A DNA stretch of 35,357 nt from Nitrosopumilaceae archaeon (GCA_965200155.1 CBDATR010000007.1:1-35357); one strand, 5' to 3'. Shown: positions 782 through 23,332, counted from the first letter of the stretch. Notes: generated from the letters alone by a model not told the origin. Numbers and translations are program-made.

Positions 782-2124
782 AGGCCCACAGACTTGTCAT
801 AGCTGGAACCGGCAGCGGAGTTGGAAAGACCAGCGTAACCTGTGGTATAATACGAGGTCTTGTTACAATGGGATACTCGGTGCAGCCATTCAAGGCAGGA
901 CCGGACTATATAGATCCCGGGCACCTAGCTGCCGCCGCGGGTATAGAGGCACACAACCTAGATGCGTGGATAATGGGAAGGAGTGGGGTTGCCAAGAGCT
1001 TTTCCCGTAATGCGAATCGTGACATATCAGTCATCGAGGGCGTTATGGGATACTATGACGGCTTGGAGGGGAACCGGAATTTGGCCAGTACTCACCATAT
1101 AGCGCAGATAACTGGCTCCCCCGTAATACTTGTTGTCGATGCACGGGGAGCGGCTCGCTCGGTTGCCGCCACCATTCTGGGTTTTATTAGATTCTCTGCC
1201 AAGTCCGGGATTAGTGCCATAATTCTGAACAATATAGGAAGCAGTAGACACAAGGAGATGTGTGTGAAAGCCATTGCTCCCCTGGGAGTACCGGTAGTAG
1301 GGGTCATACCGCGCAATCCAGACATTGCACTCAAGTCGCGACACCTGGGGCTGGCTCCAGCCACCCATGATATGGAAGTTCAGAAGGACGTAATGAGGCA
1401 AGCCAGTTTTATAATGGATCACCTAGATATGGCGCACATACTGCATCTGGCAAAATCAGCAGAACCCATCAAGGCGCCCAAGACAGCCAAAGTTATGGAA
1501 GCCAAAACTAGGATTGGTGTGGCGCTAGACGGCAGCTTTAACTTTTACTACAAGGACAATCTGGAGCGGCTAAGAAATTCAGGAGCGGAGATTCATCTCT
1601 TTAGTCCCGAGACAGGATCCTTGCCGGAGGTGGACGGACTCTATATCGGAGGAGGCTTTCCCGAGGTGCGGGGAGACATATTACAGAATAATGATGCCAT
1701 GTTGCACGCAATAAAGAAAATCATACAGGACGGGGCCCCCACATATGCTGAGTGTGGTGGGCTGATGTACCTGGCCAAGGACATAACACATGATGGCAAG
1801 AAGTTCCGCATGGCAGGCATCTTTGATGTTACCACGGTCATGAAGAATAAGGCAACCCTAGGATACACGCAGGGCATAATGAGCGAGGGACCGCTGGTAA
1901 CATCACATGCGACCTTCCGGGGTCACGAGTTCCACTACTCCGCGCTAGAGGGTGTGTCAGAGGATTCAAGATTTGCACAAGAACTGAGTATGGGTACTGG
2001 TATTATAGACGGAAAGGACGGTATCATATCACACGAAGCCATGGCATCATACGGGCACCTATACCTAGGCAAAGGTATGGCACAAAATATGATACACCGG
2101 TGTGTCTCATACTCAAGAAGATGA
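778..2124 (+). CDS. cbiA: Cobyrinate a,c-diamide synthase
   Basis: SGVGKT P-loop, FKAGPDYIDP, EGVMGYYDG, SRHLGL, FNFYY, GGGFPE, AECGGLMYL and GHEFHYS glutaminase motifs. TTG start overlaps the upstream stop. Confidence 0.95.
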   Translation: MKAHRLVIAGTGSGVGKTSVTCGIIRGLVTMGYSVQPFKAGPDYIDPGHLAAAAGIEAHNLDAWIMGRSGVAKSFSRNANRDISVIEGVMGYYDGLEGNRNLASTHHIAQITGSPVILVVDARGAARSVAATILGFIRFSAKSGISAIILNNIGSSRHKEMCVKAIAPLGVPVVGVIPRNPDIALKSRHLGLAPATHDMEVQKDVMRQASFIMDHLDMAHILHLAKSAEPIKAPKTAKVMEAKTRIGVALDGSFNFYYKDNLERLRNSGAEIHLFSPETGSLPEVDGLYIGGGFPEVRGDILQNNDAMLHAIKKIIQDGAPTYAECGGLMYLAKDITHDGKKFRMAGIFDVTTVMKNKATLGYTQGIMSEGPLVTSHATFRGHEFHYSALEGVSEDSRFAQELSMGTGIIDGKDGIISHEAMASYGHLYLGKGMAQNMIHRCVSYSRR

Positions 2125-2751
2125 GCGTATAATCTTAAAGAGTGCATTAATTACTGCGGCGGCCGCGGCGCTACCGCCCTTCCTACCGCGATTTGTCACA
2201 TATGGAGCAGCGCCAGATAGCGCAGCAAGCTCTGCCTTGGACTCGGCGGCCTGTATGAACCCCACAGGCAGACCAACCACAAGGGACGGATGTGTTAAGT
2301 CATCTCGCATCATTGAGATTAACTCCAATAGTGCAGTGGGCGCGTTACCAATGACAACCACTGCATTATCCATTTCATTTACGCTGTATCGCATGGATGC
2401 CTTGGCACGGGTAATATTCTGTTCATGGGCAATCTTTACCACCGCGGGATCAGATATGCGGCAGAAGGCATCATTTCCAAACTCCGCAAGGTTCTGCTTG
2501 TTGAGCAGACCCAGGACACCATTTACATCACAGATTATGTTGCAGCCGTTCTTGAGAGATTCCATTCCATTATGTATTGCAGATTCATGAAATAAAATAC
2601 CGCCCTCCCGGGCAAAATCAAAATCCGCAGTCGAATGTATTATTCGGCGCACAATTGGCCACTCTTCTTGACTGTATGGATGGGAGCCTATCTCATCATC
2701 GATTATGGCCATGCTGGCATCTTCTATGGATTGACCCTTTCTAGTCTGCAC
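2113..2751 (-). CDS. cbiC: Precorrin-8X/cobalt-precorrin-8 methylmutase
   Basis: RRIIHSTADF, IGNAPTAL, GLPVGFIQAAESK and GRKGGSAAAAAVINAL motifs. Confidence 0.96.
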   Translation of the reverse strand: MQTRKGQSIEDASMAIIDDEIGSHPYSQEEWPIVRRIIHSTADFDFAREGGILFHESAIHNGMESLKNGCNIICDVNGVLGLLNKQNLAEFGNDAFCRISDPAVVKIAHEQNITRAKASMRYSVNEMDNAVVVIGNAPTALLELISMMRDDLTHPSLVVGLPVGFIQAAESKAELAALSGAAPYVTNRGRKGGSAAAAAVINALFKIIRSSS

Positions 2752-3493
2752 CCTCTACCTCCCGTGCGCGCTCAAGTATCAAGTTGATCATTTTGTCATC
2801 TGTACCCAAGTGTTTTGTTATACAGACATTTTGGATGGTTGATTTTTCCAGTGCAGGTAATAAATCCGCATTTATGTCCCGCTTAACATGAGCGCCCTCA
2901 TGTAGAAAGTAAAAGACTACCGCCAAGACTTTGGGATTATCTTTCTGGCATGACTGGATGCCCGCGTTTATGTCTGGCTGCTCTATCTCCAAGAAGCAGC
3001 GGGAGACTCGACGGTACGTCTGTTGCAGATTCTTTACCACGTAGTTGATGGATATTTGGGCATTGATATCAGTGCTGCCGTGTCCAATTATGAGTACGTC
3101 AGTATCTTGACGCGGAATGGTATGACCATACTCTAGTAGAGCAGCCTGAACACGATTATCCACCAATTGGACCATAGTTGGATGCATACTCATGGGTCTT
3201 GTTACCAGAAATTTTATCTCTGTCTTTTCCTGGTATTTCATGGCATCCCGAACTGCTACCTTTACCTTTTTGCCCGGATAAAGAAAGTAGGGCACAATGG
3301 TCAGTGTATCGAGTTTTTGTGTCAGGCATTTTTTCATGGCATCATCTATGAAGGGGGGCAAAACTTCCAAAAAGCAATAGTCCGCGTAGTCATACTGACC
3401 TCCAGACATGGCCCGCTGAGTTATTACGCGCATTTCATCGTGAGCTTCTTTCTCGCGACTCCCCCTGTCTATGATAAGTAATCCGCGCCTCAT
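2741..3493 (-). CDS. cbiX: Sirohydrochlorin cobaltochelatase (two-domain CbiX)
   Basis: Duplicated CbiX fold: RGS..CFLE..PYFLYPG and GHGS..CFLE..YFLHEGAHVKRDI. Lies in a cobalamin operon. Confidence 0.9.
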   Translation of the reverse strand: MRRGLLIIDRGSREKEAHDEMRVITQRAMSGGQYDYADYCFLEVLPPFIDDAMKKCLTQKLDTLTIVPYFLYPGKKVKVAVRDAMKYQEKTEIKFLVTRPMSMHPTMVQLVDNRVQAALLEYGHTIPRQDTDVLIIGHGSTDINAQISINYVVKNLQQTYRRVSRCFLEIEQPDINAGIQSCQKDNPKVLAVVFYFLHEGAHVKRDINADLLPALEKSTIQNVCITKHLGTDDKMINLILERAREVEGAD

Positions 3494-4536
3494 TTACTGG
3501 CCACCGCAATAGTAAGATTCGGAGGGAATTTTTGCTTTTTTATAATCAAATCACCCCCAGATACTAGGAGGGCAGCAGCTTCGGATACACTGGGCGTACC
3601 CTCAAAACGCTCAACCACCGCAGAGGGGTTTGGCGTGGCCACCTTTGCCAAGGACTCCCTATCCAACAGTTCCACGGGCACATTCAGGATTTGACCAGCC
3701 TCCTGTAGTCCCTTGACGGGTTTGGGTTTTTTCACCGAGACCAGTTTTGCTACAGACAACATGCTCATATTGTACTTGTACAGTGATGTCTCAAGCCCGC
3801 GTATAATTGTATGCGCCGTAGTGTCATGGTGGAGGCCCACACCCACAACCAAAGACGGCGGCCGGTACACTACGCTTTTCTTCATTAAATCATCTGGTAG
3901 TAGCCCGTCAGTTATTACAAGAAAGGCACTACAGTTTGACTGACGGAGGGTATCAATGTTATCATATACATGGACGTTGCCAGGCAGTGAGCCGGGCCAC
4001 CAGTTTCGCTCACCGGCATCCTGGTATAGACCTATTTTGTCATTATTTACCATGTGTGCGCTGGTAGCGGTTACTGTTGAGTCATCCTCTATGCGCCACC
4101 CCAAGTCTCTCCCCACCAAATCTACGGCTATGGTATTGTTCACATCCGCGGCAGTAGTTATTACTGGTATGGCACCGGTCCGGCTTGCCATATCCCGGGC
4201 TAGCTGGTTGGCTCCGCCTATGTGGCCCGATAATACACTAATGACATAATTGAGTTTATCATCGATTACTAGTATGGCGGGATCCACCTTTTTGCTTTTC
4301 AAGTGTGGTGCAATAAGTCGCACGACGGCGCCTAATGAAAATATACAAACAATTCCCGGATACCGGGAGAATAGCCTGCCCAGTATGTCAGGGGTGGAGT
4401 CGCTGTACCACTGAATATGAGGTGCGCCATTATCCAACTTTTTTGGGGCAAAAACGGTCATGTTTGTGAATTTTTGTGCCAAATCAATGGCAATATTTAC
4501 ACCATTTTTTGTTATGGCAAGTATGGCGACATTCAT
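3490..4536 (-). CDS. cbiG: Cobalt-precorrin-5A hydrolase
   Basis: GAVVRLIAP, DPAILVID, LSGHIGGAN, VITTAAD and SVSEAAAL motifs. True start is likely the ATG at 4536 (MNVAILAIT); the ORF-track extension to 4602 runs into a MITE. Confidence 0.93.
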   Translation of the reverse strand: MNVAILAITKNGVNIAIDLAQKFTNMTVFAPKKLDNGAPHIQWYSDSTPDILGRLFSRYPGIVCIFSLGAVVRLIAPHLKSKKVDPAILVIDDKLNYVISVLSGHIGGANQLARDMASRTGAIPVITTAADVNNTIAVDLVGRDLGWRIEDDSTVTATSAHMVNNDKIGLYQDAGERNWWPGSLPGNVHVYDNIDTLRQSNCSAFLVITDGLLPDDLMKKSVVYRPPSLVVGVGLHHDTTAHTIIRGLETSLYKYNMSMLSVAKLVSVKKPKPVKGLQEAGQILNVPVELLDRESLAKVATPNPSAVVERFEGTPSVSEAAALLVSGGDLIIKKQKFPPNLTIAVASK

Positions 4537-4556
4537 GATTAACAGTGTCGCGCGGA

Positions 4557-4564
4557 TTATAAAA
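4557..4564 (-). promoter_or_regulatory. TATA box (TTTTATAA) of cbiG-cbiX-cbiC operon
   Basis: Lies 21-28 bp upstream of the cbiG ATG, the usual spacing for a leaderless archaeal transcript. Confidence 0.6.
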
Positions 4565-4569
4565 TACTT

Positions 4570-4670
4570 GTATGAGTTCACGTCTTCCGGAATCTTATGC
4601 ACAAATCACATTAACTAGAACAACCTGTTCCATCAGTTATGCGTAAATTTAGACACAGGTGAACTCATAC
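4570..4670. mobile_element. MITE copy 1 (101 bp variant, no TSD)
   Basis: TIR GTATGAGTTCAC...GTGAACTCATAC; flanks differ. Confidence 0.9.
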
Positions 4671-4726
4671 AAGAGAGAGTCAAGTGGTTTAAGCAGTATA
4701 TCAGGGACGTCGTTACGTCACTAAAG

Positions 4727-4827
4727 GTATGAGTTCACGTCTTCCGGAATCTTATGCACAAATCACATTAACTAGAACAACCTGTTCCATCAGTTATGCG
4801 TAAATTTAGACACAGGTGAACTCATAC
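4727..4827. mobile_element. MITE copy 2 (101 bp variant)
   Basis: Identical to copy 1; 8-bp TSD CACTAAAG. Confidence 0.93.
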
Positions 4828-12083: not shown

Positions 12084-12343
12084 TGTAATGTATGAAAAGT
12101 CGGTCCGCTAGTCATTGGTATCTCACTCCATCCATTTTGCATCATTTGCCCTAATTGTCTGGGTCGCCTTTTTATTCCTGAAGCGGTGTTTCGCCGTTAT
12201 CTATCCAGTGAGAAGTGCAACCTTCTCTCATTGTAGTAGTCCACATAATCCCGGAGACTGTCATAATGCCATATCTCATCCTCAATCGTTCTGTGGAAGC
12301 GCTCCAGTTTGCCATTTGTCTGCGGGCGGTATGGTCTGGAATT
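12084..12343 (-). mobile_element. IS481-family 3' fragment (right IR retained), truncated by MITE
   Basis: Matches the right ends of the 5720-6767 and 8694-9723 copies. Confidence 0.85.
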
Positions 12344-12435
12344 GTATGAGTTCACCTGTGTCTAAATTTACGCATAACTGATCGCGACAGTTAATGTGAT
12401 TTGTGCATAAGATTCCGGAAGACGTGAACTCATAC
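12344..12435. mobile_element. MITE copy 7 (92 bp, no TSD)
   Basis: Intact TIRs; joins an IS481 fragment to unrelated DNA. Confidence 0.92.
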
Positions 12436-12593
12436 ATTTAAGTTGCTCCTGTACAGATGTCTCCCTCACGGAAGTCACTTGAGGATACACAAGACTATTC
12501 CAGACTGGAAAGTGTACTGGAGAGGTGCAGGATGAGGGGCATGGATTTCTACCGTTACATCGAGTATATGATGAATTCTACTTTTAAAAAAAA
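12436..12593 (+). pseudogene. Probable IS66-family transposase C-terminal remnant
   Basis: Translates to ...RKSLEDTQDYSRLESVLERCRMRGMDFYRYIE, resembling the IS66 TnpC tail (SxxxTCxxxGxxFxxYL). Paralogous scrap at 31525-31584. Confidence 0.5.
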
Positions 12594-12644: not shown

Positions 12645-13574
12645 ATGCAACAAGCACCAGGAAAATCATTCAGAAAGGGAGTTACAATGGCCGAATTGTT
12701 CCAAATGTTCCCGGATGAAAAGACCGCCATGAAGTGGTTCGAAACCACTCTCTGGAAGGACGGTAGAAAATGCCCCCGATGCGGTTCCAGTATGACGTCC
12801 GAGTCCACACATAGAACAATGCCTTACCGCTGTGTAGACTGTAAGCAGTTCTTTAGTGTTAAAATGGGGACCATAATGGAACGATCCAAAATCAGTTACC
12901 AGTCTTGGGCGATAGCAACATACCTGTTTGCCACCAACCTGAAAGGTGTCAGTTCCATGAAACTACACCGTGACTTGGGTATTACTCAGAAGTCGGCATG
13001 GTTCATGGTACACCGACTAAGAGAGTCATGGGGAACATTGGTCAGTGATAAGATGGAGGGATCAGTCGAGATAGACGAGTCCTATTTTGGCGGTAAAGAG
13101 AAGAACAAACATGGAACGAAACGTCTTAACGTGAAAGGCGGTTCCGGTGGCAAGACAGCCGTTGTTGGTATGAAAGACCGCAAGACTGGAATGATTCGCG
13201 CGGAACCACTCCCGGATACAACCGCGGCACGTCTCGGCAAATTTATTCAGGAGAACGCCAAGGCGGATGCCGTGAAATATACTGATGACAATCCTGCATA
13301 CCGCTCACTAAAGAACCATGGAATAGTGAAACATAGTGTAGGTGAATATGTCAAAGAACAGGCTCACACCAATGGTATCGAGTCATTCTGGGCGATACTA
13401 AAACGGGGGTATTACGGCATATTCCACCATGTTTCCGCGAAACACCTACACCGTTATGTGAATGAATTCGCCTGGAGATTCAACATTAGAGTACAAGATA
13501 CCATTTCAATGATGGAATCGATAACACGTTCCATGACTGGCCACAGGCTGACATATCAGCAGTTGATATCCTGA
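12645..13574 (+). CDS. IS1595-family (ISXO2-like) transposase, apparently intact
   Basis: Zn ribbon CPRC..YRCVDC, HTH (SSMKLHRDLGITQKSAWFM), VEIDESY, YTDD, HTNGIESFW and HLHRYVNEF..RFN. TATA TTTATAAA at 12615-12622. Confidence 0.95.
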   Translation: MQQAPGKSFRKGVTMAELFQMFPDEKTAMKWFETTLWKDGRKCPRCGSSMTSESTHRTMPYRCVDCKQFFSVKMGTIMERSKISYQSWAIATYLFATNLKGVSSMKLHRDLGITQKSAWFMVHRLRESWGTLVSDKMEGSVEIDESYFGGKEKNKHGTKRLNVKGGSGGKTAVVGMKDRKTGMIRAEPLPDTTAARLGKFIQENAKADAVKYTDDNPAYRSLKNHGIVKHSVGEYVKEQAHTNGIESFWAILKRGYYGIFHHVSAKHLHRYVNEFAWRFNIRVQDTISMMESITRSMTGHRLTYQQLIS

Positions 13575-13610
13575 TGATTCATTTAAACCACCCTTCCATG
13601 ATGAAATCAC

Positions 13611-14942
13611 ATGGTAGCGTGTAGATCTATTAACGGTCATGCGAACATGATTTTGTATGGTATGATATTCGGGAACAAACATCGCGGAACAAACATCGCG
13701 GAACAAACATCGCGGAACAAACATCGCGGAACAAACATCGCGGAACAAACATCGCGGAACAAACATCGCGGAACAAACATCGCGGAACAAACATCGCGGA
13801 ACAAACATCGCGGAACAAACATCGCGGAACAAACATCGCGGAACAAACATCGCGGAACAAACATCGCGGAACAAACATCGCGGAACAAACATCGCGGAAC
13901 AAACATCGCGGAACAAACATCGCGGAACAAACATCGCGGAACAAACATCGCGGAACAAACATCGCGGAACAAACATCGCGGAACAAACATCGCGGAACAA
14001 ACATCGCGGAACAAACATCGCGGAACAAACATCGCGGAACAAACATCGCGGAACAAACATCGCGGAACAAACATCGCGGAACAAACATCGCGGAACAAAC
14101 ATCGCGGAACAAACATCGCGGAACAAACATCGCGGAACAAACATCGCGGAACAAACATCGCGGAACAAACATCGCGGAACAAACATCGCGGAACAAACAT
14201 CGCGGAACAAACATCGCGGAACAAACATCGCGGAACAAACATCGCGGAACAAACATCGCGGAACAAACATCGCGGAACAAACATCGCGGAACAAACATCG
14301 CGGAACAAACATCGCGGAACAAACATCGCGGAACAAACATCGCGGAACAAACATCGCGGAACAAACATCGCGGAACAAACATCGCGGAACAAACATCGCG
14401 GAACAAACATCGCGGAACAAACATCGCGGAACAAACATCGCGGAACAAACATCGCGGAACAAACATCGCGGAACAAACATCGCGGAACAAACATCGCGGA
14501 ACAAACATCGCGGAACAAACATCGCGGAACAAACATCGCGGAACAAACATCGCGGAACAAACATCGCGGAACAAACATCGCGGAACAAACATCGCGGAAC
14601 AAACATCGCGGAACAAACATCGCGGAACAAACATCGCGGAACAAACATCGCGGAACAAACATCGCGGAACAAACATCGCGGAACAAACATCGCGGAACAA
14701 ACATCGCGGAACAAACATCGCGGAACAAACATCGCGGAACAAACATCGCGGAACAAACATCGCGGAACAATACTAGTTTAGGTTTCCACCACGATACCGC
14801 CAAGGATGGAATAGTATTTGACTGGTTCGGGTGGAGTAACCGATTCTTTAACGAGGGGGCGCCGAATAGTTCCCTGTCCAGGGGACTTAATAGAACCCGT
14901 TCCACAACCAGCGAGGGCGCTACGCGCAACGAGGGCGTCTAG
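13611..14942 (+). CDS. Possible repeat-containing leader ORF (NKHRGTNIAEQTSR)x26
   Basis: TTTAAA at 13582-13587 (24-29 bp upstream of the ATG); stop is 2 bp before the R-M start. The array has no stops in any frame, so its openness is not evidence of coding. Confidence 0.3.
   Translation: MVACRSINGHANMILYGMIFGNKHRGTNIAEQTSRNKHRGTNIAEQTSRNKHRGTNIAEQTSRNKHRGTNIAEQTSRNKHRGTNIAEQTSRNKHRGTNIAEQTSRNKHRGTNIAEQTSRNKHRGTNIAEQTSRNKHRGTNIAEQTSRNKHRGTNIAEQTSRNKHRGTNIAEQTSRNKHRGTNIAEQTSRNKHRGTNIAEQTSRNKHRGTNIAEQTSRNKHRGTNIAEQTSRNKHRGTNIAEQTSRNKHRGTNIAEQTSRNKHRGTNIAEQTSRNKHRGTNIAEQTSRNKHRGTNIAEQTSRNKHRGTNIAEQTSRNKHRGTNIAEQTSRNKHRGTNIAEQTSRNKHRGTNIAEQTSRNKHRGTNIAEQTSRNKHRGTNIAEQTSRNNTSLGFHHDTAKDGIVFDWFGWSNRFFNEGAPNSSLSRGLNRTRSTTSEGATRNEGV
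13672..14770. repeat. Perfect tandem repeat, 14-bp unit GGAACAAACATCGC x78 plus 7-bp partial
   Basis: 13672-14763 = 1092 bp = 78 units, then GGAACAA. No variant unit seen. Confidence 0.97.
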
Positions 14943-14944
14943 CC

Positions 14945-17710
14945 GTGGCCGATGTCGAGACCACGCTGAACACCCATCTGGCAAGACTACTGAACGATAT
15001 GAGGTATAACTGGACAGCAAAAGCTGAGCAGGGACACATGATGAAAAAACGCGCCCAGATAGATGTACTGATTGAAGAGCCGGGCTGGAAGCGTGTCATT
15101 GTAGAATGTAAAATCGGCATGAAACCGGATGACATTCGTAAACGGTTTGAGAATAGATTCCGGGACGATAACACAGTTCCAGCTGTAATATTCGAGGTCA
15201 AGTATGACGAATCATTACAGTCATGGAGTGATTTAGAAACAACAGAGAAACTACACTACTCTTTACACTATGATGCTAACACAAGATACCCAAATAATGG
15301 CTTCTTGACCGGAACTGTTCGTGATTTGGCAGTTTCAATACAATATGGTCGAGTCATTCCGGGGGATCATGAAGCCGCCATAATGCACGATGCCGTGAGT
15401 GGTGCAGGAGTGATTATAGGTAGAACAAGTGCACGTTCCAAAATATCACAAATTTTGTCTCAGGAGGTATCAATACAGACAGATGTCATGGCCGCACTTA
15501 CACTGGCAGGCGCCCTTTCATTTCATGACACAGCGGCTGTTCCTGAGGGAATCACAACGCTAGGTGGCATAATGTTTAGTGGTAAAGCTGACGTTGCCTC
15601 ATTATTAGAGTCGTGGAGGCGGATATTACTCATCAATTATTATCCGATTTTTGATCCCGCAAGAAAAATACTCGCCGCTCTACCAATGAATGAGGCATCC
15701 GAGATAATGGGTATGTTGTATAACGCGAATAGTCGTATACACGCACAAGGAGAGTCACCGGACTTGTACGGAATGGTATTCCAGAGAGTGATAAATGATA
15801 GAAAAAGACTGGCGGCATTTTATACCAAACCGGCATCCGCGGCCTTACTAGCTGCTGTCACAATACCGGATCAATGGCATGATACAGAATCTGTCAAAAA
15901 CATACGAGTGGCAGATTTTGCTTGCGGAACAGGAGCACTATTACATGCCGCATACAAAAGAATATCTGCAAACTATGAAGCTGCATCCGGTCTTTCCATG
16001 AGAGATATACACCCGCACATGATGGCACACTCCTTAATTGGGGCTGATGTATTGCCCATATCTACACACCTTACCGCCGCTGGGCTAACTAGCATGTATC
16101 CAAAACGGAGTTACTCTCATACAAAAATATACCAACCGATCCAAGGTGGTAGGGATAATAGACTGGGTTCTCTGGAATGGATAAAGAATGATGCCACCAT
16201 TGACCAGTCAGAGCTCCGCCTGACCGGTAGTGGAATAAGTGGTGAGATGGACGCACCGCCACATCACTCTTGTGATTGTATTCTGATGAATCCACCATAC
16301 GTCCGTTCACAGGGACCAGGTGGGAATAAAAACAAGTCAGATACTCGACAAATGTTTACTGCATTCGGCGCTACCAGTGCAGAGAGGGAAAAGATGAGTC
16401 AGCGTGCCATTCAACTATTCAAAAAGAATCGTTCCTGTTCAAACAAGCAGGCGGGGCTTGCAACATTCTTTATGGATCTAGCACATAAAAAAATAAAGAA
16501 GGGTGGCTATCTCGGAGTGATTCTCCCCATGACCGCGGCGACCGGTGTCAAGTGGGAGCAGTTCCGCAATTTAATATCGAAACATTATGATGATGTCATT
16601 ATAATATCGGGGCAGTTCTCGGCAGATACCGGGATGAAGGAAATCATTGTATCCGGTCGTAGAACTGAGAAACCGTCAGGACGCGGAATATTTGTGTCAT
16701 TGAATGAAACACCACAATCAACCCTGGAAGGTGTATGTACAGGTATGGCTATATGGGAAAAACCCATCCTACCAATAGACGGGAACAGACCAACTGGCGG
16801 AACCAGCATAAAGGTTGGAGATGACTGTATCGGTACGGCCATTGAGGGAACGATAGATGGGACGTGGTCGGCTGTTGGTATGTCAAACTTCACTCTACTA
16901 CAAATAGCACATCATTTAGTGAATGGGCAGTTATTCAGTCCGCCATCTTTCATATCCGAACCATTACACATCATTCCTCTACGTGATATAGCAAGTGCAG
17001 GCCCATCACACTTACAGATTCGTGGTACTGAATCACTCCATGACACAACAAGTCGCATGACAGGTTATTCTGGGCCATTCAACTTAGTACAATGGTGGGA
17101 TGGTTGCCTTTATCCCACTCTCTGGAATAATGATCATTCAACACAACATTCCATGATGGTTAAACCGGATCACTCCTTGGAGCCACGTCAGGGCAGTAGT
17201 GATGATGTGATTGAACGGATATGGGATACCCGTTCACACGTACAGATGAATATTACAGCTAGAACCACCAGTCAGAGACTGATGTGCGCTTACACAGAAC
17301 AGCCGGTAGTGGGAGGGAGTGCATGGCCGAGTATCATACTAAAACGGGAATGGGAAGAAAACATTCCCGCACAGAAAGAGTCTGTAGAAAAAGGGTTGGT
17401 TGTATGGTGTAATGGAACGCTCGGTATTCTAATGAGGTGGTATATTTCTGGACACCAACAATCTGGTCGAAGTATTACCACACGTACTGGAGTGATGGAT
17501 TTGCCGGTACCTGCCATCCCATTGCTGAAACGACTGGGATCAATCTATGACGAATTCAAGAATCTGCCCCTTGATAGAATGATGAACCTGTGGAAGGATG
17601 AGAATCGTATTAGGATGGACGATGCCATTCTGGAACGGTTGGGACTTGACATAAATCTGGATTATATCCGCAAACACTTGTGTGCAGAACCCACCATGAA
17701 TGGTTCCTAG
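14945..17710 (+). CDS. Type IIG-like restriction-modification enzyme (PD-(D/E)xK nuclease + N6-adenine MTase + putative TRD)
   Basis: N-terminal QIDVLI...VIVECK; MTase motifs X (FYT), I (DFACGTG) and IV (MNPPY), plus GGYLGVILP; long C-terminal region; 921 aa. Confidence 0.85.
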   Translation: MADVETTLNTHLARLLNDMRYNWTAKAEQGHMMKKRAQIDVLIEEPGWKRVIVECKIGMKPDDIRKRFENRFRDDNTVPAVIFEVKYDESLQSWSDLETTEKLHYSLHYDANTRYPNNGFLTGTVRDLAVSIQYGRVIPGDHEAAIMHDAVSGAGVIIGRTSARSKISQILSQEVSIQTDVMAALTLAGALSFHDTAAVPEGITTLGGIMFSGKADVASLLESWRRILLINYYPIFDPARKILAALPMNEASEIMGMLYNANSRIHAQGESPDLYGMVFQRVINDRKRLAAFYTKPASAALLAAVTIPDQWHDTESVKNIRVADFACGTGALLHAAYKRISANYEAASGLSMRDIHPHMMAHSLIGADVLPISTHLTAAGLTSMYPKRSYSHTKIYQPIQGGRDNRLGSLEWIKNDATIDQSELRLTGSGISGEMDAPPHHSCDCILMNPPYVRSQGPGGNKNKSDTRQMFTAFGATSAEREKMSQRAIQLFKKNRSCSNKQAGLATFFMDLAHKKIKKGGYLGVILPMTAATGVKWEQFRNLISKHYDDVIIISGQFSADTGMKEIIVSGRRTEKPSGRGIFVSLNETPQSTLEGVCTGMAIWEKPILPIDGNRPTGGTSIKVGDDCIGTAIEGTIDGTWSAVGMSNFTLLQIAHHLVNGQLFSPPSFISEPLHIIPLRDIASAGPSHLQIRGTESLHDTTSRMTGYSGPFNLVQWWDGCLYPTLWNNDHSTQHSMMVKPDHSLEPRQGSSDDVIERIWDTRSHVQMNITARTTSQRLMCAYTEQPVVGGSAWPSIILKREWEENIPAQKESVEKGLVVWCNGTLGILMRWYISGHQQSGRSITTRTGVMDLPVPAIPLLKRLGSIYDEFKNLPLDRMMNLWKDENRIRMDDAILERLGLDINLDYIRKHLCAEPTMNGS

Positions 17711-20247: not shown

Positions 20248-21221
20248 GGCAGTACCATCAAAATGCCTGTAAATATGGCAAGGGCCGCAGACAGGTATCC
20301 CAGTCGGAATATGGCTGCCACTACGCCCGCCTCGTTTTTGGGACCGCCACTCAGTATGAGTCGCACCAAAGTAACCGGTGCCCGCTCATCTCCGCTGTCC
20401 CGGAGCATCATGTTATCATCCTGTATGACTGAGCGGTACTTAATTTGGCGGTGCTCTACAATGCGACGGACACTGTGCAGGAATAGAAAGGAGTTCATTA
20501 TACATGGCAGTATGGCAACCGCGGCCACCACCTCCACGCCGCCATATATGGTTACACAGCCATAAGTGACCCCCAATACAAGGGCGCCGGAATCGCCGGG
20601 AAATATTCTGCTTGGCAGGCGGTGATACCGGTAAAAGGCACAGGACGCCGTCAGTAGTATGGCGCCAAACACCAAGGCATCCCACCGCTGTAGTACGGCA
20701 AGAACCACACAGATGGCCGCAGTGGCGATGCATATGTAGCCGCTGGCCACGCCGTTCATGACGTCAATTGAGTTTATGGTATTTCCCGTGATTGATATGA
20801 TGGCAATAATGACGCCCATATACAGGATTGGTATGGAGACAGCATCAAAGGCCGGGAACACAAGGCGTGTATCATACGTGCCAAGGAATATCACGGGAGC
20901 GGATACAGCCGCAAGTCCCAGGGGCTTGAACCAGCCGGGCATGACATGTTTGTCATCGGCATAGCCTATACACAGGGCGCCGCATATGGTAATAATCATG
21001 GCCAGGATACCCGTGTCGCCAGTATACCAGAATAATATTATCATACCACTGCATATACCAAGGGCTATGGCCGGCCCCCCCGGTCTTGGTATGGGAGGAT
21101 GACCACTCTTGTTCATGTCCGGGACACTCATTCCGTGGCGACGCAGGTATGAGATCAGGGCGGGCATGGTACCATAGACTACAATGAAGGATACGGCGAT
21201 AGCCACGATGTAATGAATCAT
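20244..21221 (-). CDS. aglH: MraY/GPT-family UDP-GlcNAc:dolichol-phosphate GlcNAc-1-P transferase
   Basis: DMNK, PRPGG, GYADD, NSIDVMNG and IFPGDSG; multi-TM. ATG 21221 overlaps the hel308 stop (TAATG). Confidence 0.85.
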   Translation of the reverse strand: MIHYIVAIAVSFIVVYGTMPALISYLRRHGMSVPDMNKSGHPPIPRPGGPAIALGICSGMIILFWYTGDTGILAMIITICGALCIGYADDKHVMPGWFKPLGLAAVSAPVIFLGTYDTRLVFPAFDAVSIPILYMGVIIAIISITGNTINSIDVMNGVASGYICIATAAICVVLAVLQRWDALVFGAILLTASCAFYRYHRLPSRIFPGDSGALVLGVTYGCVTIYGGVEVVAAVAILPCIMNSFLFLHSVRRIVEHRQIKYRSVIQDDNMMLRDSGDERAPVTLVRLILSGGPKNEAGVVAAIFRLGYLSAALAIFTGILMVLP

Positions 21222-23332
21222 TATGAGAGTCGCGCGGCCTCCCTGCGGATACGGGCAGCAGTACGGGGACCCGTCCTGCATATGGAGGCGATTTGGGATG
21301 CGCTAATTCTATTCACGTCCGAAATGGTGCGTACACCCGCCCCGTATAGACGCCGGGCGCGAACGCGGCCCACATCCCGGATGGCAACCAATGGTACAAT
21401 ATCTTTGGATATGCCGTATGATATCCGGACTGACAGGGAGTCCAGTTGTGATGATATAGAGTGATTCCCCTCATGAATGGCAAGACGGGACATGCATGTG
21501 GCGAGCCAGGAACCGGCTTCTGCCATGCGGTGTATGTCGCCGGATTCTACTCCATACTCATCAGAGAGCACATCCTCGGTTACCTCGCTTATCCAGGCAT
21601 ACAATCCGATGAGGCTCCTTGAGGCATTATGGTATGGTATCTCCTCTAATAGCTGGGATCGGTTACCATCAATCAACGCACAGGCATTCTCCATGTCCCT
21701 CTCCCGTAGATACAGTAATGGCGGGAACTCGGCGCACCTTGTCATGGAATATAGAAAGCCCAGGGAGTAGTCACCCTTGCCCGCGTTCCGGATTAACCTA
21801 ACAAAATCATGGGCGGTCTGTGGTCTCAGGTACAGTTTTGAGGTCAAGGAGCCCAATGGGGTAGAACGGTAGGAATCATCGCTGATTGGTCTTATCATGC
21901 GCATCTCTTCGAGATCGTACAGGGCATCATCAATGTCATATTCCAGGTCACGCTGCCGGCCGCCCAGGGTAGTAGAAAAGAAGTCGTGTATTTCAGGCGT
22001 GGTGATGCGCGGTTTCTGAACTATTATGGATAGTACGTGGGAGGGTATGGATTGGGGATCCCCCATGTGTGATAGGATGGGTTCCGGCGTCCCGTGTATG
22101 TAAGTGGTCATGATATCATCGTATGTGTTCCAGTTTGCCACTATAACTGACTGGCCAGCATCATCGTACTGGGGCCTACCGGCACGGCCGCATAACTGCT
22201 TGTATTCAAGAACGCTGATGGGCATGTTCCTGCCATGATTCCCGTCATATCTGGTGATGTTTGGAATGATTACCAGCCTGGCGGGAAGGTTCACGCCCGC
22301 GGCTAGGGTGGTGGTTGCCGCCAGCACCTTTATGAGGCCGTCCCGAAAATTCTCCTCTACAATATGGCGGCAGTGCTGATCCAACCCCGCATGGTGAAAG
22401 GCAACACCCCTCTTCACAAGGTCTGCCAGGGAACGTATCAGTCCGCTGGTCTGGTTTTTCAGTATCTCGCTGGATACCTCGGCCAGTCTCATCCTGTCAG
22501 TGTCAGAGAGTAGCGACTTTATGCCGCCGGCCGCCTTGGTTGCCTGTGGAATGGTACCCCGGCGGGTATTGGCGAATATGAGAGCCTGTCCACCACCCCT
22601 CACGCACTGTGCGGCAAGATCCGCGGCCGGACCCCGGGAGCTTTTGTGGACTTCATACGCGGTGTTATCCTGCATGGTTACCATGCCGTCATTGTATACA
22701 CCCTCGTGTAATGGGACCGGTCTCCACTCACTGTGTACTAGATGGCAGTCCAGCCATTGTGCCAGTTCTTGGGCGTTGGTTATGGTGGCAGAGAGTGCCA
22801 CTATCTGCAAATCTGGGCGGCGCAATTGGGCGAGTACCATCTCCAAGGTTGCCCCCCTATACTTGTCGCCGATAAGGTGTATCTCATCGGCTATGACCAG
22901 GTCAACTTCCTGCAGCCATTTCTCCTGCTTGCGGAATGCCAAGTCCATTCGCTCGTTGGTCATGCACAATAGGTTTCCTGGGAGCCTGCCGGCAGTGCCC
23001 AGATCCCCGGCCGAAACTGATACCCGTAAAGAGGGCAGGAATTTTTTGAGTACCTTGAATTCCGCGTACTTTTCTGATGCCAGTGCCCGTAACGGACTCA
23101 GGTATACGGCCCGGCGACCCCCACGCTGCAGCAGGGCAGATACGGCCAGCATGGCTACCAGGGTCTTGCCGCTAGCAGTGGGCGCAGACACCATTACGCT
23201 ATTGCCGTCCAGCAGACCGGCATCTATGGCGTCCCGTTGCGGCGGGTATAGTTCCGTAATGCCCAGAGTCTGCATGTAACTGATCATTTCGGGGGGGCAG
23301 GTATCCGGTATCATGATGATATGGTGACTCAC
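21221..23332 (-). CDS. hel308: Ski2-like DNA helicase Hel308
   Basis: LYPPQ, APTASGKT, DEIH, LSAT, HHAGL, TLAAGVNLP, GRAGRP and a C-terminal HhH (VGRVRARRL). Start may be ATG 23314. Confidence 0.93.
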   Translation of the reverse strand: MSHHIIMIPDTCPPEMISYMQTLGITELYPPQRDAIDAGLLDGNSVMVSAPTASGKTLVAMLAVSALLQRGGRRAVYLSPLRALASEKYAEFKVLKKFLPSLRVSVSAGDLGTAGRLPGNLLCMTNERMDLAFRKQEKWLQEVDLVIADEIHLIGDKYRGATLEMVLAQLRRPDLQIVALSATITNAQELAQWLDCHLVHSEWRPVPLHEGVYNDGMVTMQDNTAYEVHKSSRGPAADLAAQCVRGGGQALIFANTRRGTIPQATKAAGGIKSLLSDTDRMRLAEVSSEILKNQTSGLIRSLADLVKRGVAFHHAGLDQHCRHIVEENFRDGLIKVLAATTTLAAGVNLPARLVIIPNITRYDGNHGRNMPISVLEYKQLCGRAGRPQYDDAGQSVIVANWNTYDDIMTTYIHGTPEPILSHMGDPQSIPSHVLSIIVQKPRITTPEIHDFFSTTLGGRQRDLEYDIDDALYDLEEMRMIRPISDDSYRSTPLGSLTSKLYLRPQTAHDFVRLIRNAGKGDYSLGFLYSMTRCAEFPPLLYLRERDMENACALIDGNRSQLLEEIPYHNASRSLIGLYAWISEVTEDVLSDEYGVESGDIHRMAEAGSWLATCMSRLAIHEGNHSISSQLDSLSVRISYGISKDIVPLVAIRDVGRVRARRLYGAGVRTISDVNRISASQIASICRTGPRTAARIRREAARLS

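Follow-up and report, generated by a model that had tools for sequence, protein, structure and literature searches.

A perfect 14-nucleotide tandem array upstream of a Type IIG-like restriction-modification gene of a Nitrosopumilaceae archaeon: a candidate switch through a leader reading frame

In the metagenome-assembled genome (MAG) of a Nitrosopumilaceae archaeon (GCA_965200155.1; 87.6% complete, 51 contigs, 2.38 Mb), a gene encoding a single-chain restriction-modification (R-M) enzyme is directly preceded by an open reading frame (ORF) that runs through a perfect tandem array of 78 copies of a 14-nucleotide (nt) unit. The locus is placed on contig C7 (CBDATR010000007.1), the entire 35,357 nt of which constitute the window analyzed in this work (positions are counted from its first letter). 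This leader ORF begins at a predicted leaderless promoter and ends 2 nt before the R-M gene, which makes it plausible but unproven that the number of units modulo 3 acts as a switch of R-M expression, as proposed in an initial annotation made from the sequence alone. To a real, frame-dependent effect of the array on R-M expression via the leader ORF we assign a little less than an even chance.

Anatomy of the array and the leader ORF

The array (13672-14770, + strand, 1099 nt) is composed of 78 units GGAACAAACATCGC followed by GGAACAA. Tandem Repeats Finder (TRF) described it with a period of 14, 78.5 copies, 100% matches and 0 indels, and the exact-unit pattern search gave 78 units versus 0.19 expected by chance, a number that none of 100 shuffles reached. 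The array is stop-free in all six frames, and the + strand unit contains no start codon; the unit length, the copy number and the openness in all frames given in the initial annotation were therefore reproduced. Since all three minus-strand frames are open too, openness is a property of the unit and an ORF through the array is trivial. Unlike the openness, the geometry by which the array is entered and left is not trivial.

Start codons located 5' of the array are found in + frame 0 only (ATG 13611, ATG 13647, TTG 13653, and ATG 13662), while + frames 1 and 2 have no starts before the array and run into the stops TAG 14779 (frame 1) and TAG 14774 (frame 2) behind it. Read from the first of these starts, the leader ORF (13611..14942, + strand) has 443 codons, i.e., 20 unique ones, those of the repeat peptide (NKHRGTNIAEQTSR)n, and 57 further unique ones, and it terminates at TAG 14940-14942. 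Frame analysis agrees with the earlier claim that the array is left in the sole frame that continues, up to 2 bp before the GTG of the R-M gene, and that the two other exit frames are closed about 12 bp on, at TAG 14774-14776 and TAG 14779-14781 (14774..14781, + strand). A unit number ≡ 2 mod 3 leads to the stop at 14774 (168 nt before the GTG), and a number ≡ 1 to the stop at 14779 (163 nt). As 78 = 3 x 26, an array-less form would keep the reading frame, with a leader ORF of ~79 codons. When 14771-14944 was shuffled 20000 times with its dinucleotides preserved, 2.4% of the shuffles left a given frame open with its end between -4 and +20 nt relative to the GTG, and 6.8% did so for any of the three frames.

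The unique 174 nt between the array and the R-M start (14771..14944, + strand) lack a consensus TATA hexamer and any T5 run, and they show no significant folding as RNA: the predicted fold of 14771-14960 was no better than that of shuffled sequences (z-score -0.11). Similarly, no stable structure was predicted for the array RNA, the centroid of which was unpaired. Within the same segment, direct repeats CGAGGGGGCG (14852-14861), CGAGGGCG (14912-14919), and CGAGGGCG (14930-14937) flank 81 nt that are absent from an array-less paralogue of the locus on contig C22, which suggests a deletion or a duplication between such short repeats.

Promoter geometry and initiation signals

Among the 997 ORFs of at least 200 amino acids (aa) in this genome, the starts of TATA-like hexamers peak at -29 (35), -30 (28), and -28 (28), versus ~2 per position elsewhere, and such a pile-up at -30 to -28 is the signature of leaderless mRNAs. 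The TATA-box-like TTTAAA (13582-13587, + strand), noticed initially as lying 24-29 bp before ATG 13611, is found exactly there, with its first base at -29, the genome's modal distance. With a promoter weight matrix trained on 81 TATA-bearing genes of other contigs, the 13611 site scored 9.9 bits, which is the best value in 13450-15050, lies inside the training range (5th percentile 7.9) and is attained by just 0.58% of 2592 random genome ATGs. The promoter-only score, 6.9 bits at 13612, is reached at 14/35237 + strand positions of the window. In its sequence geometry, the site is a candidate leaderless promoter, with a TATA box at the organism's fixed distance from the ATG.

In 14771-14944, no comparable promoter was found on either strand (the best promoter-only score on the + strand is 1.1 bits, at 14876), so that the nearest recognisable promoter of the R-M gene is the one upstream of the array. 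Between 13611 and 14945 there are zero T-runs of at least 5, i.e., no T-run terminator. An antisense promoter directed into the array was also considered and rejected, as the best minus-strand score was only 2.8 bits (at 14792). A Shine-Dalgarno (SD)-like GAGG, supplied by the last CGAGGGCG copy (14930-14937), occurs at 14931..14934 (+ strand), its first base at -14 from GTG 14945. Genes of this genome that have no TATA at -29 show an excess of SD-like tetramers from -14 to -10 (26, 33, 40, 37, and 30 versus a background of ~11).

The R-M gene

The gene downstream of the array (14945..17710, + strand) encodes a predicted 921-aa single-chain R-M enzyme (Pfam Eco57I, 2.3e-7, 31.5 bits versus a cut-off of 25.3). 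We found 385 homologues, the full-length ones being 919-931 aa long. GTG 14945 aligns exactly with the N-termini of 13 homologues (M-x-D-V-E-T-x-L-N; E5 and N9 are invariant in the 14 sequences), by which this codon, already proposed as the start in the initial annotation, was assigned as the R-M start. The leader stop and this start are co-directed and separated by a gap of 2 nt.

Motifs of gamma-class N6-adenine methylases, i.e., motif I ADFACGTG and N449-P450-P451 (NPPY), are invariant in the 14 sequences. The N-terminal region carries a nuclease-like pattern D40...E54-x-K56, of which D40 and E54, together with E45, are invariant in the same set, and the C-terminal region is conserved among the homologues. 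No nuclease family or solved structure was matched by the putative nuclease domain. A single-sequence search of solved structures gave 0 matches at E 0.001, and a profile search gave matches to the methylase core only, with a weak match to BrxX in PDB. The enzyme misses the curated models NCBIfam met_A_Alw26 (27.7 versus 353.5) and BREX_1_MTaseX (18.9 versus 500), and its match to PADLOC REase_MTase_IIG is weak (8.6e-5 over ~100 residues). As it falls below all curated subfamily cut-offs, we call it Type IIG-like and assign it to no named subfamily.

The nearest named homologue loci belong to Cenarchaeum and Nitrosopumilus MAGs. Many of the 79 homologue loci are sponge-associated and come from unrelated phyla (Poribacteria, Poriferihabitaceae, Dehalococcoidia, Cenarchaeum, Nitrosopumilus), and one Poribacteria genome has four copies of a gene of this R-M family, which suggests that the family circulates within sponge microbiomes.

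Proposed mechanism and translational coupling

We propose that the array may be a hypermutable minisatellite within the first, leaderless cistron of a two-cistron transcript (the leader ORF, then the R-M gene). Judging from the genome-wide promoter geometry, transcription would begin on ATG 13611 or beside it, ~24 nt downstream of TTTAAA 13582, and would continue through the array, which lacks a T-run terminator, into the R-M gene, in line with contigs of RNA libraries that bridge the two (described below). Ribosomes initiating at the 5'-terminal ATG would read the array in the sole frame with a start. If the unit number is ≡ 0 mod 3, which is the case in the present assembly, these ribosomes would stop at TAG 14940, 2 nt before GTG 14945, and could enter the R-M gene by termination-reinitiation. 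One unit gained or lost would transfer the stop to TAG 14779 or 14774, 163-168 nt upstream, which is too far in the archaeal pairs tested so far. Slippage in the array would in this way raise or lower R-M translation, heritably and reversibly. The array has the identical-unit, slippage-prone tract of a contingency locus, and since the putative nuclease and the methylase would be carried on one polypeptide, their activities would go together and switching off would be safe for the cell.

The available text of Huber et al. 2019 (PMC6728339) reports that translation of the downstream gene is strictly coupled in 13/14 overlapping gene pairs, in Haloferax volcanii and E. coli. Huber et al. 2023 (PMC10666635) report that coupling holds for a native Haloferax pair with a +1 nt gap, that 40-60% is lost at 13-14 nt, and that at 22-23 nt there is no more reinitiation. 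As reinitiation works at +1 nt and is lost at 22 nt or more in Haloferax, the switch of the initial annotation is mechanistically credible. The locus shares with the coupled pairs the co-directed arrangement and the tiny stop-start gap (+2 nt in the window), and a change of frame would place the stop 163-168 nt before the GTG. It differs from them in that their members both specify genuine proteins, which frequently belong to the same complex, whereas the upstream ORF of the window has no conserved product and its coupling is a prediction; the coupling experiments cover Haloferax and E. coli and include no thaumarchaeon.

Representation of the locus in sequencing runs

Logan contigs of four runs from two studies, comprising DNA (X1 and X5) and RNA libraries (X4 and X6, from the same study as X5), were searched with a query composed of the right flank and three units. 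The runs holding the locus are labelled sponge metagenome. In 4/4 runs the array appeared as a high-depth 44-nt cycle, and a contig began 30 nt inside the array and continued into the R-M gene. With the right junction present in all four, the array cannot be put down to this assembly, from which alone the exact value of 78 comes.

The ratio of array to flank k-mer depth was 59 in X1 (2310.7/39.2) and 18 in X5 (368.6/20.3), while the assembly implies ~76. These ratios would correspond to ~61 units in X1 and ~20 units in X5, and they suggest, as a hint, copy-number variation, although Logan unitig depth reflects copy number poorly and differences between the ratios may be technical. The same discrepancy, taken together with the origin of the window as a contig of an 87.6%-complete MAG and with a 1.1-kb perfect array being beyond the sizing range of short reads, might be read as a sign that the array or its length is an assembly artefact, not real in cells. 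We consider this extremely improbable: the junction and the 44-nt cycle recur in both studies, in DNA as well as in RNA, and other long perfect arrays were resolved in the assembly, suggesting long accurate reads. The existence of the array is therefore safe.

In the RNA libraries, contigs bridge the array and the R-M gene (14741-15619 in X4 and 14741-15694 in X6), as would be expected if the R-M gene is transcribed from the array side, although these contigs are strandless, lack a 5' end and may come from DNA contamination. The cover of X4 ends at 15619, and X6 has a hole at 15694-15850, which in itself proves nothing. As a separate observation, the A6 tract at 15044-15049 (R-M codons 34-35) is A7 in one contig of the X6 library (depth 12.6) and A6 in X1, X5, and X4, so that the X6 sample has a frameshifted allele unless the extra A is an assembly or RNA error.

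The array-to-flank depth of the RNA libraries amounts to 103 and 146, values that cannot separate more array RNA from longer arrays or DNA carry-over. As the DNA run from that study gave a lower ratio (18), they would fit an excess of array RNA over R-M RNA, and thereby a different role of the array, namely that of a length-dependent spacer, whose length, not frame, tunes the R-M gene, e.g., by transcript loss over 1.1 kb or by faster decay. The position of the array between the sole recognisable promoter and the R-M gene agrees with such a rheostat, and repeats that tune expression from the mRNA leader are known in bacteria. The AGAT repeat of uspA2 in Moraxella catarrhalis tunes expression from the mRNA leader. 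In Helicobacter pylori, the available text of the cited report describes a G-repeat within the leader of tlpB mRNA that is targeted by the small RNA RepG (PMC8295292). These leader repeats resemble that of the window as variable repeats located between the transcription start and the start codon of the regulated gene, but they are untranslated and act by RNA pairing or mRNA level, whereas the repeat of the window lies in a translatable ORF and its proposed read-out is the frame. The RNA and DNA runs are, moreover, different samples, possibly with arrays of unequal length, and unitig depth is a poor measure of expression; the array has neither a terminator-like T-run nor a stable structure; and a spacer leaves the frame geometry unexplained. 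Taken together, we find a purely length-dependent role decidedly unlikely.

Repeats in other R-M genes

The same genome contains ~10 Type ISP-like R-M paralogues (Pfam Eco57I and Type_ISP_C), which share 75-100% identity over 2 kb. All of them contain, at the same spot in the specificity domain, a perfect repeat of 5.6-9.1 copies with a unit of 7 or 8 nt, and the repeat units differ between the paralogues (AGCCAGTC, AACCAGTC, AGTCCACC, and TGGTGAG). The ISP-like R-M segments are localized in this genome (G000) at C34:79282, C42:7350, C9:11015, C22:25824, C24:11885, C43:97224, C10:137531, and C24:241017; in the locus L100, the ISP-like gene is split at the repeat. These paralogues have in common with the R-M locus of the window the organism, an Eco57I-type methylase fused to other domains, and perfect units that are not multiples of 3. 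The difference is that their repeat, of 5.6-9.1 units, is inside the specificity domain, whereas that of the window is upstream, in the leader ORF, and more than 10x longer.

Among the homologues of the R-M enzyme itself, 4/79 loci have a short repeat inside the gene or at its edge that coincides with a break of the frame, i.e., (GA)18.5 at 4384-4420 of L071, C19 at 4388-4406 of L067, and G22 at 4775-4796 of L022, all mid-gene, and (GACAGCC)8.4 at 1805-1863 of L090, at the 5' end of the R-M gene with an out-of-phase upstream ATG; homopolymer lengths taken from long-read assemblies may be wrong. The last of these, from an alphaproteobacterial MAG, resembles the locus of the window in having a homologous enzyme and a perfect non-3 repeat just before the conserved N-terminus, through which ATG 1774 reads. 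It differs in that the repeat lies in the R-M frame itself (open 1799-4786), the ATG is one frame off, and there is no intervening stop and no coupling. Judged by this arrangement, L090 is probably a classical in-gene switch caught out of phase. By analogy, the repeats in R-M genes of the same genome and of the same family raise the prior for a switch at the window locus.

Origin of the array and evaluation of the switch

A decayed paralogous remnant of the locus is present in the same genome (G000:C22 ~56660-56970; L019 1330-1640). It comprises the 3' end of an IS1595-family insertion sequence (IS), the leader region and the first ~42 R-M codons, and then breaks off. At the array site it reads ...ATGATATCCGAGAACAATGTTTAGG, with no array, while the window reads ...ATGATATTCGG, then the array, then GGAACAATACTAGTTTAGG. 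The remnant is also devoid of the counterparts of window 13567-13614 (TATA and ATG) and 14849-14929, and it retains TAA, 2 nt, and GTG. With the stop 2 nt before the GTG in this array-less copy, the coupling geometry must have existed before the array did, and it did not form around the array. On this comparison, the array is a young, lineage-specific expansion within a pre-existing leader, and the perfect identity of the units indicates that the expansion is very young.

The GGAACAAACATCGC array is the only such array in the genome; many other long perfect tandem arrays are present elsewhere in it. The 28-nt array dimer had 0 matches in genome_contigs, metagenome_contigs, and viral_contigs, and, with up to 2 mismatches, was found in 0/200 other genomes of the family. 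The upstream and 5' region of the R-M gene was found in 0/60 related genomes, save one 22-nt chance match, and the R-M start pattern gave 0 matches in metagenome_contigs. Taken together, these searches yielded no second allele with a countable unit number.

The same findings fit an alternative in which the array is an incidental runaway minisatellite, produced by slippage at a short GGAACAA direct repeat within a dispensable part of the leader beside the IS, while the R-M gene has its own weak promoter and/or SD signal, the unit number is without any real influence on it, and the in-phase arrangement is a 1-in-3 coincidence. The array is unique to the lineage, being absent from the paralogue, from the 60 and 200 related genomes and from the three public collections; the genome is rich in other long perfect arrays; the stop-start geometry predates the array; and the SD-like GAGG at -14, a leader peptide with no homologues, and a tract far longer than usual switch tracts point in the same direction. 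What such an expansion leaves to coincidence is a leaderless promoter leading into the array (0.58%), a single entry frame and an exit 2 nt before the GTG (2.4%), and it gives no reason for the placement of the array beside an R-M gene, given the recurrent R-M repeats in the genome and the family. Furthermore, if the leader is translated and coupled, a non-3 unit must affect the coupling, whether selected or not. We regard the incidental origin as quite possible, while giving it clearly less than an even chance.

Several further points weigh against a frame-dependent switch, in addition to the limits of the depth ratios and of the RNA-library contigs given above. The value n mod 3 = 0 comes from one assembly and would be met by chance in 1 of 3 cases. 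The TATA pattern covers ~10% of ORFs (97/997), so that a weak or non-consensus promoter in 14771-14944 may be missed; likewise, with GAGG at -14 in the SD-enriched range, the R-M gene may initiate independently, and internal cistrons of archaeal operons are said to initiate on their own. The leader ORF is unconserved, with no homologues found in protein searches, and in L021 and L022, the two homologue loci of thaumarchaeal origin, no upstream ORF adjoins the R-M start. The cost to the cell of a 1.1-kb tract and of a 443-aa junk peptide looks high, so that a runaway expansion could have produced them, and a tract of this length might slip so often that it is noise more than a switch. Switch tracts described so far do not usually exceed some tens of units. 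Finally, the coupling experiments come from Haloferax, a member of a different phylum. For the ON/OFF control by coupling put forward in the initial annotation, the anatomy, the promoter geometry and the absence of a comparable rival promoter or T-run give partial support, while the strictness of the control is weakened by GAGG at -14 and by the 1.1-kb tract.

The protein searches behind these statements also bear on the possibility that the product of the array is itself functional, either as a disordered repeat protein of 443 aa or as a repeat RNA of high abundance, and that the R-M gene is a mere neighbour. The 443-aa leader query gave 0 matches among 8000 scored candidates, not even to itself, so that a search of this kind may miss such repeats, and the 57-aa tail matched no Pfam family. 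Six weak multi-stretch matches of this tail to long repeat proteins (one of them an FG-GAP_2 repeat protein) were taken as chance, and Pfam matches of the repeat peptides (DUF4322, zf-CCCH_2, and PAM2) were rejected as low-complexity noise, since no stretch passes alone. A canonical leaderless promoter and start, together with the abundance of array k-mers in two RNA libraries, would suit a product of this kind. Nevertheless, neither the ORF nor its unique tail has a homologue among the sequences searched, the RNA has no Rfam family and no stable fold, and the array, a very young expansion, occurs neither in the paralogue nor in any of the related genomes searched, which makes a function of the array product very unlikely.

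Relation to known phase-variable systems

Repeat-driven phase variation is, to our knowledge, known almost only from bacterial pathogens and commensals. Among R-M systems, it is described in the available parts of the cited works for the Type III mod genes of Haemophilus and Neisseria and for the Type IIG gene cj0031 of Campylobacter jejuni (PMC13076061, PMC4889913). The bacterial systems have, like the locus of the window, a perfect non-3 tandem repeat attached to an R-M gene, in which a change of units shifts the frame, and in the single-chain phase-variable enzymes, both activities are lost together. In mod and cj0031, however, the repeat is within the R-M frame and has few to some tens of units of 1-8 nt, whereas in the window ~78 copies of a 14-nt unit occupy a separate upstream ORF, with its stop 2 nt before the R-M gene, in an archaeon, and the switch is a prediction from sequence.

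In the accessible text of a 2025 review, archaeal distributions are named as future work and the terms "translational coupling", "upstream open reading", "leader peptide", and "untranslated region" are absent (PMC11868660), and "phase variation" is absent from that of a 2024 review of archaeal R-M systems (PMC11033074). Our searches of the open-access literature turned up neither a repeat located in a coupled upstream ORF nor phase-variable archaeal R-M genes.

In its most far-reaching form, the proposal would describe an archaeal contingency locus of new design, in which a 14-nt minisatellite in a leaderless cistron gates a single-chain R-M enzyme by termination-reinitiation, n mod 3 sets the defence and methylation state of the cell, and the locus forms, together with the ISP paralogues, a multi-locus switchable R-M set in a sponge-symbiotic thaumarchaeon. 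We put this forward tentatively and consider it unlikely in its entirety. If true, it would extend repeat-driven phase variation to a domain where it is hardly documented, and it would show that archaea living in an animal host rich in phages hedge the state of their restriction and methylation. A repeat would then control a gene from outside both the gene and its promoter, via the stop position of upstream ribosomes. The locus is directly testable, as long-read metagenomes give the unit number and N6-methyladenine (6mA) on the same molecules.

Genomic setting of the locus

Immediately 5' of the leader ORF, a gene of an IS1595-family transposase is localized (12645..13574, + strand, 309 aa; Pfam DDE_Tnp_IS1595 1.8e-39 and NCBIfam transpos_IS1595 5.5e-55, both above the cut-off), which belongs to the ISXO2/IS1595-type DDE transposases. 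A second copy of this transposase, on contig C13, shows 84% identity, and its homology with the window stops near 13557. Terminal inverted repeats of the IS1595 element were searched for, and no convincing pair was found. The transposase ORF and the leader ORF are both in frame 0 and are separated by five in-frame stops at 13572-13604 (TGA TGA .. TAA .. TGA TGA). As the C22 remnant lacks the 48 nt holding these five stops, the transposase and leader frames run together there.

The Rfam scan gave no family in the leader and array region, two tRNAs elsewhere in the window being the sole threshold matches. At 21221-23332 the window encodes a Hel308-type helicase with archaeal domain 4, a mark of the archaeal origin of the contig. 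Among the small contigs C2, C4, C6, C8, C26, and C33 of the MAG, several contain homopolymers of 25-42 nt, (GT)102, (CA)47, and (TAT)n, runs with no likeness to the rest of the genome. These contigs may be DNA of the host or of another contaminant in the bin. A miniature inverted-repeat transposable element (MITE) of 92-93 bp with 16-nt terminal inverted repeats was identified at 12340-12439 of the window, and more than 80 matches to it are distributed genome-wide.

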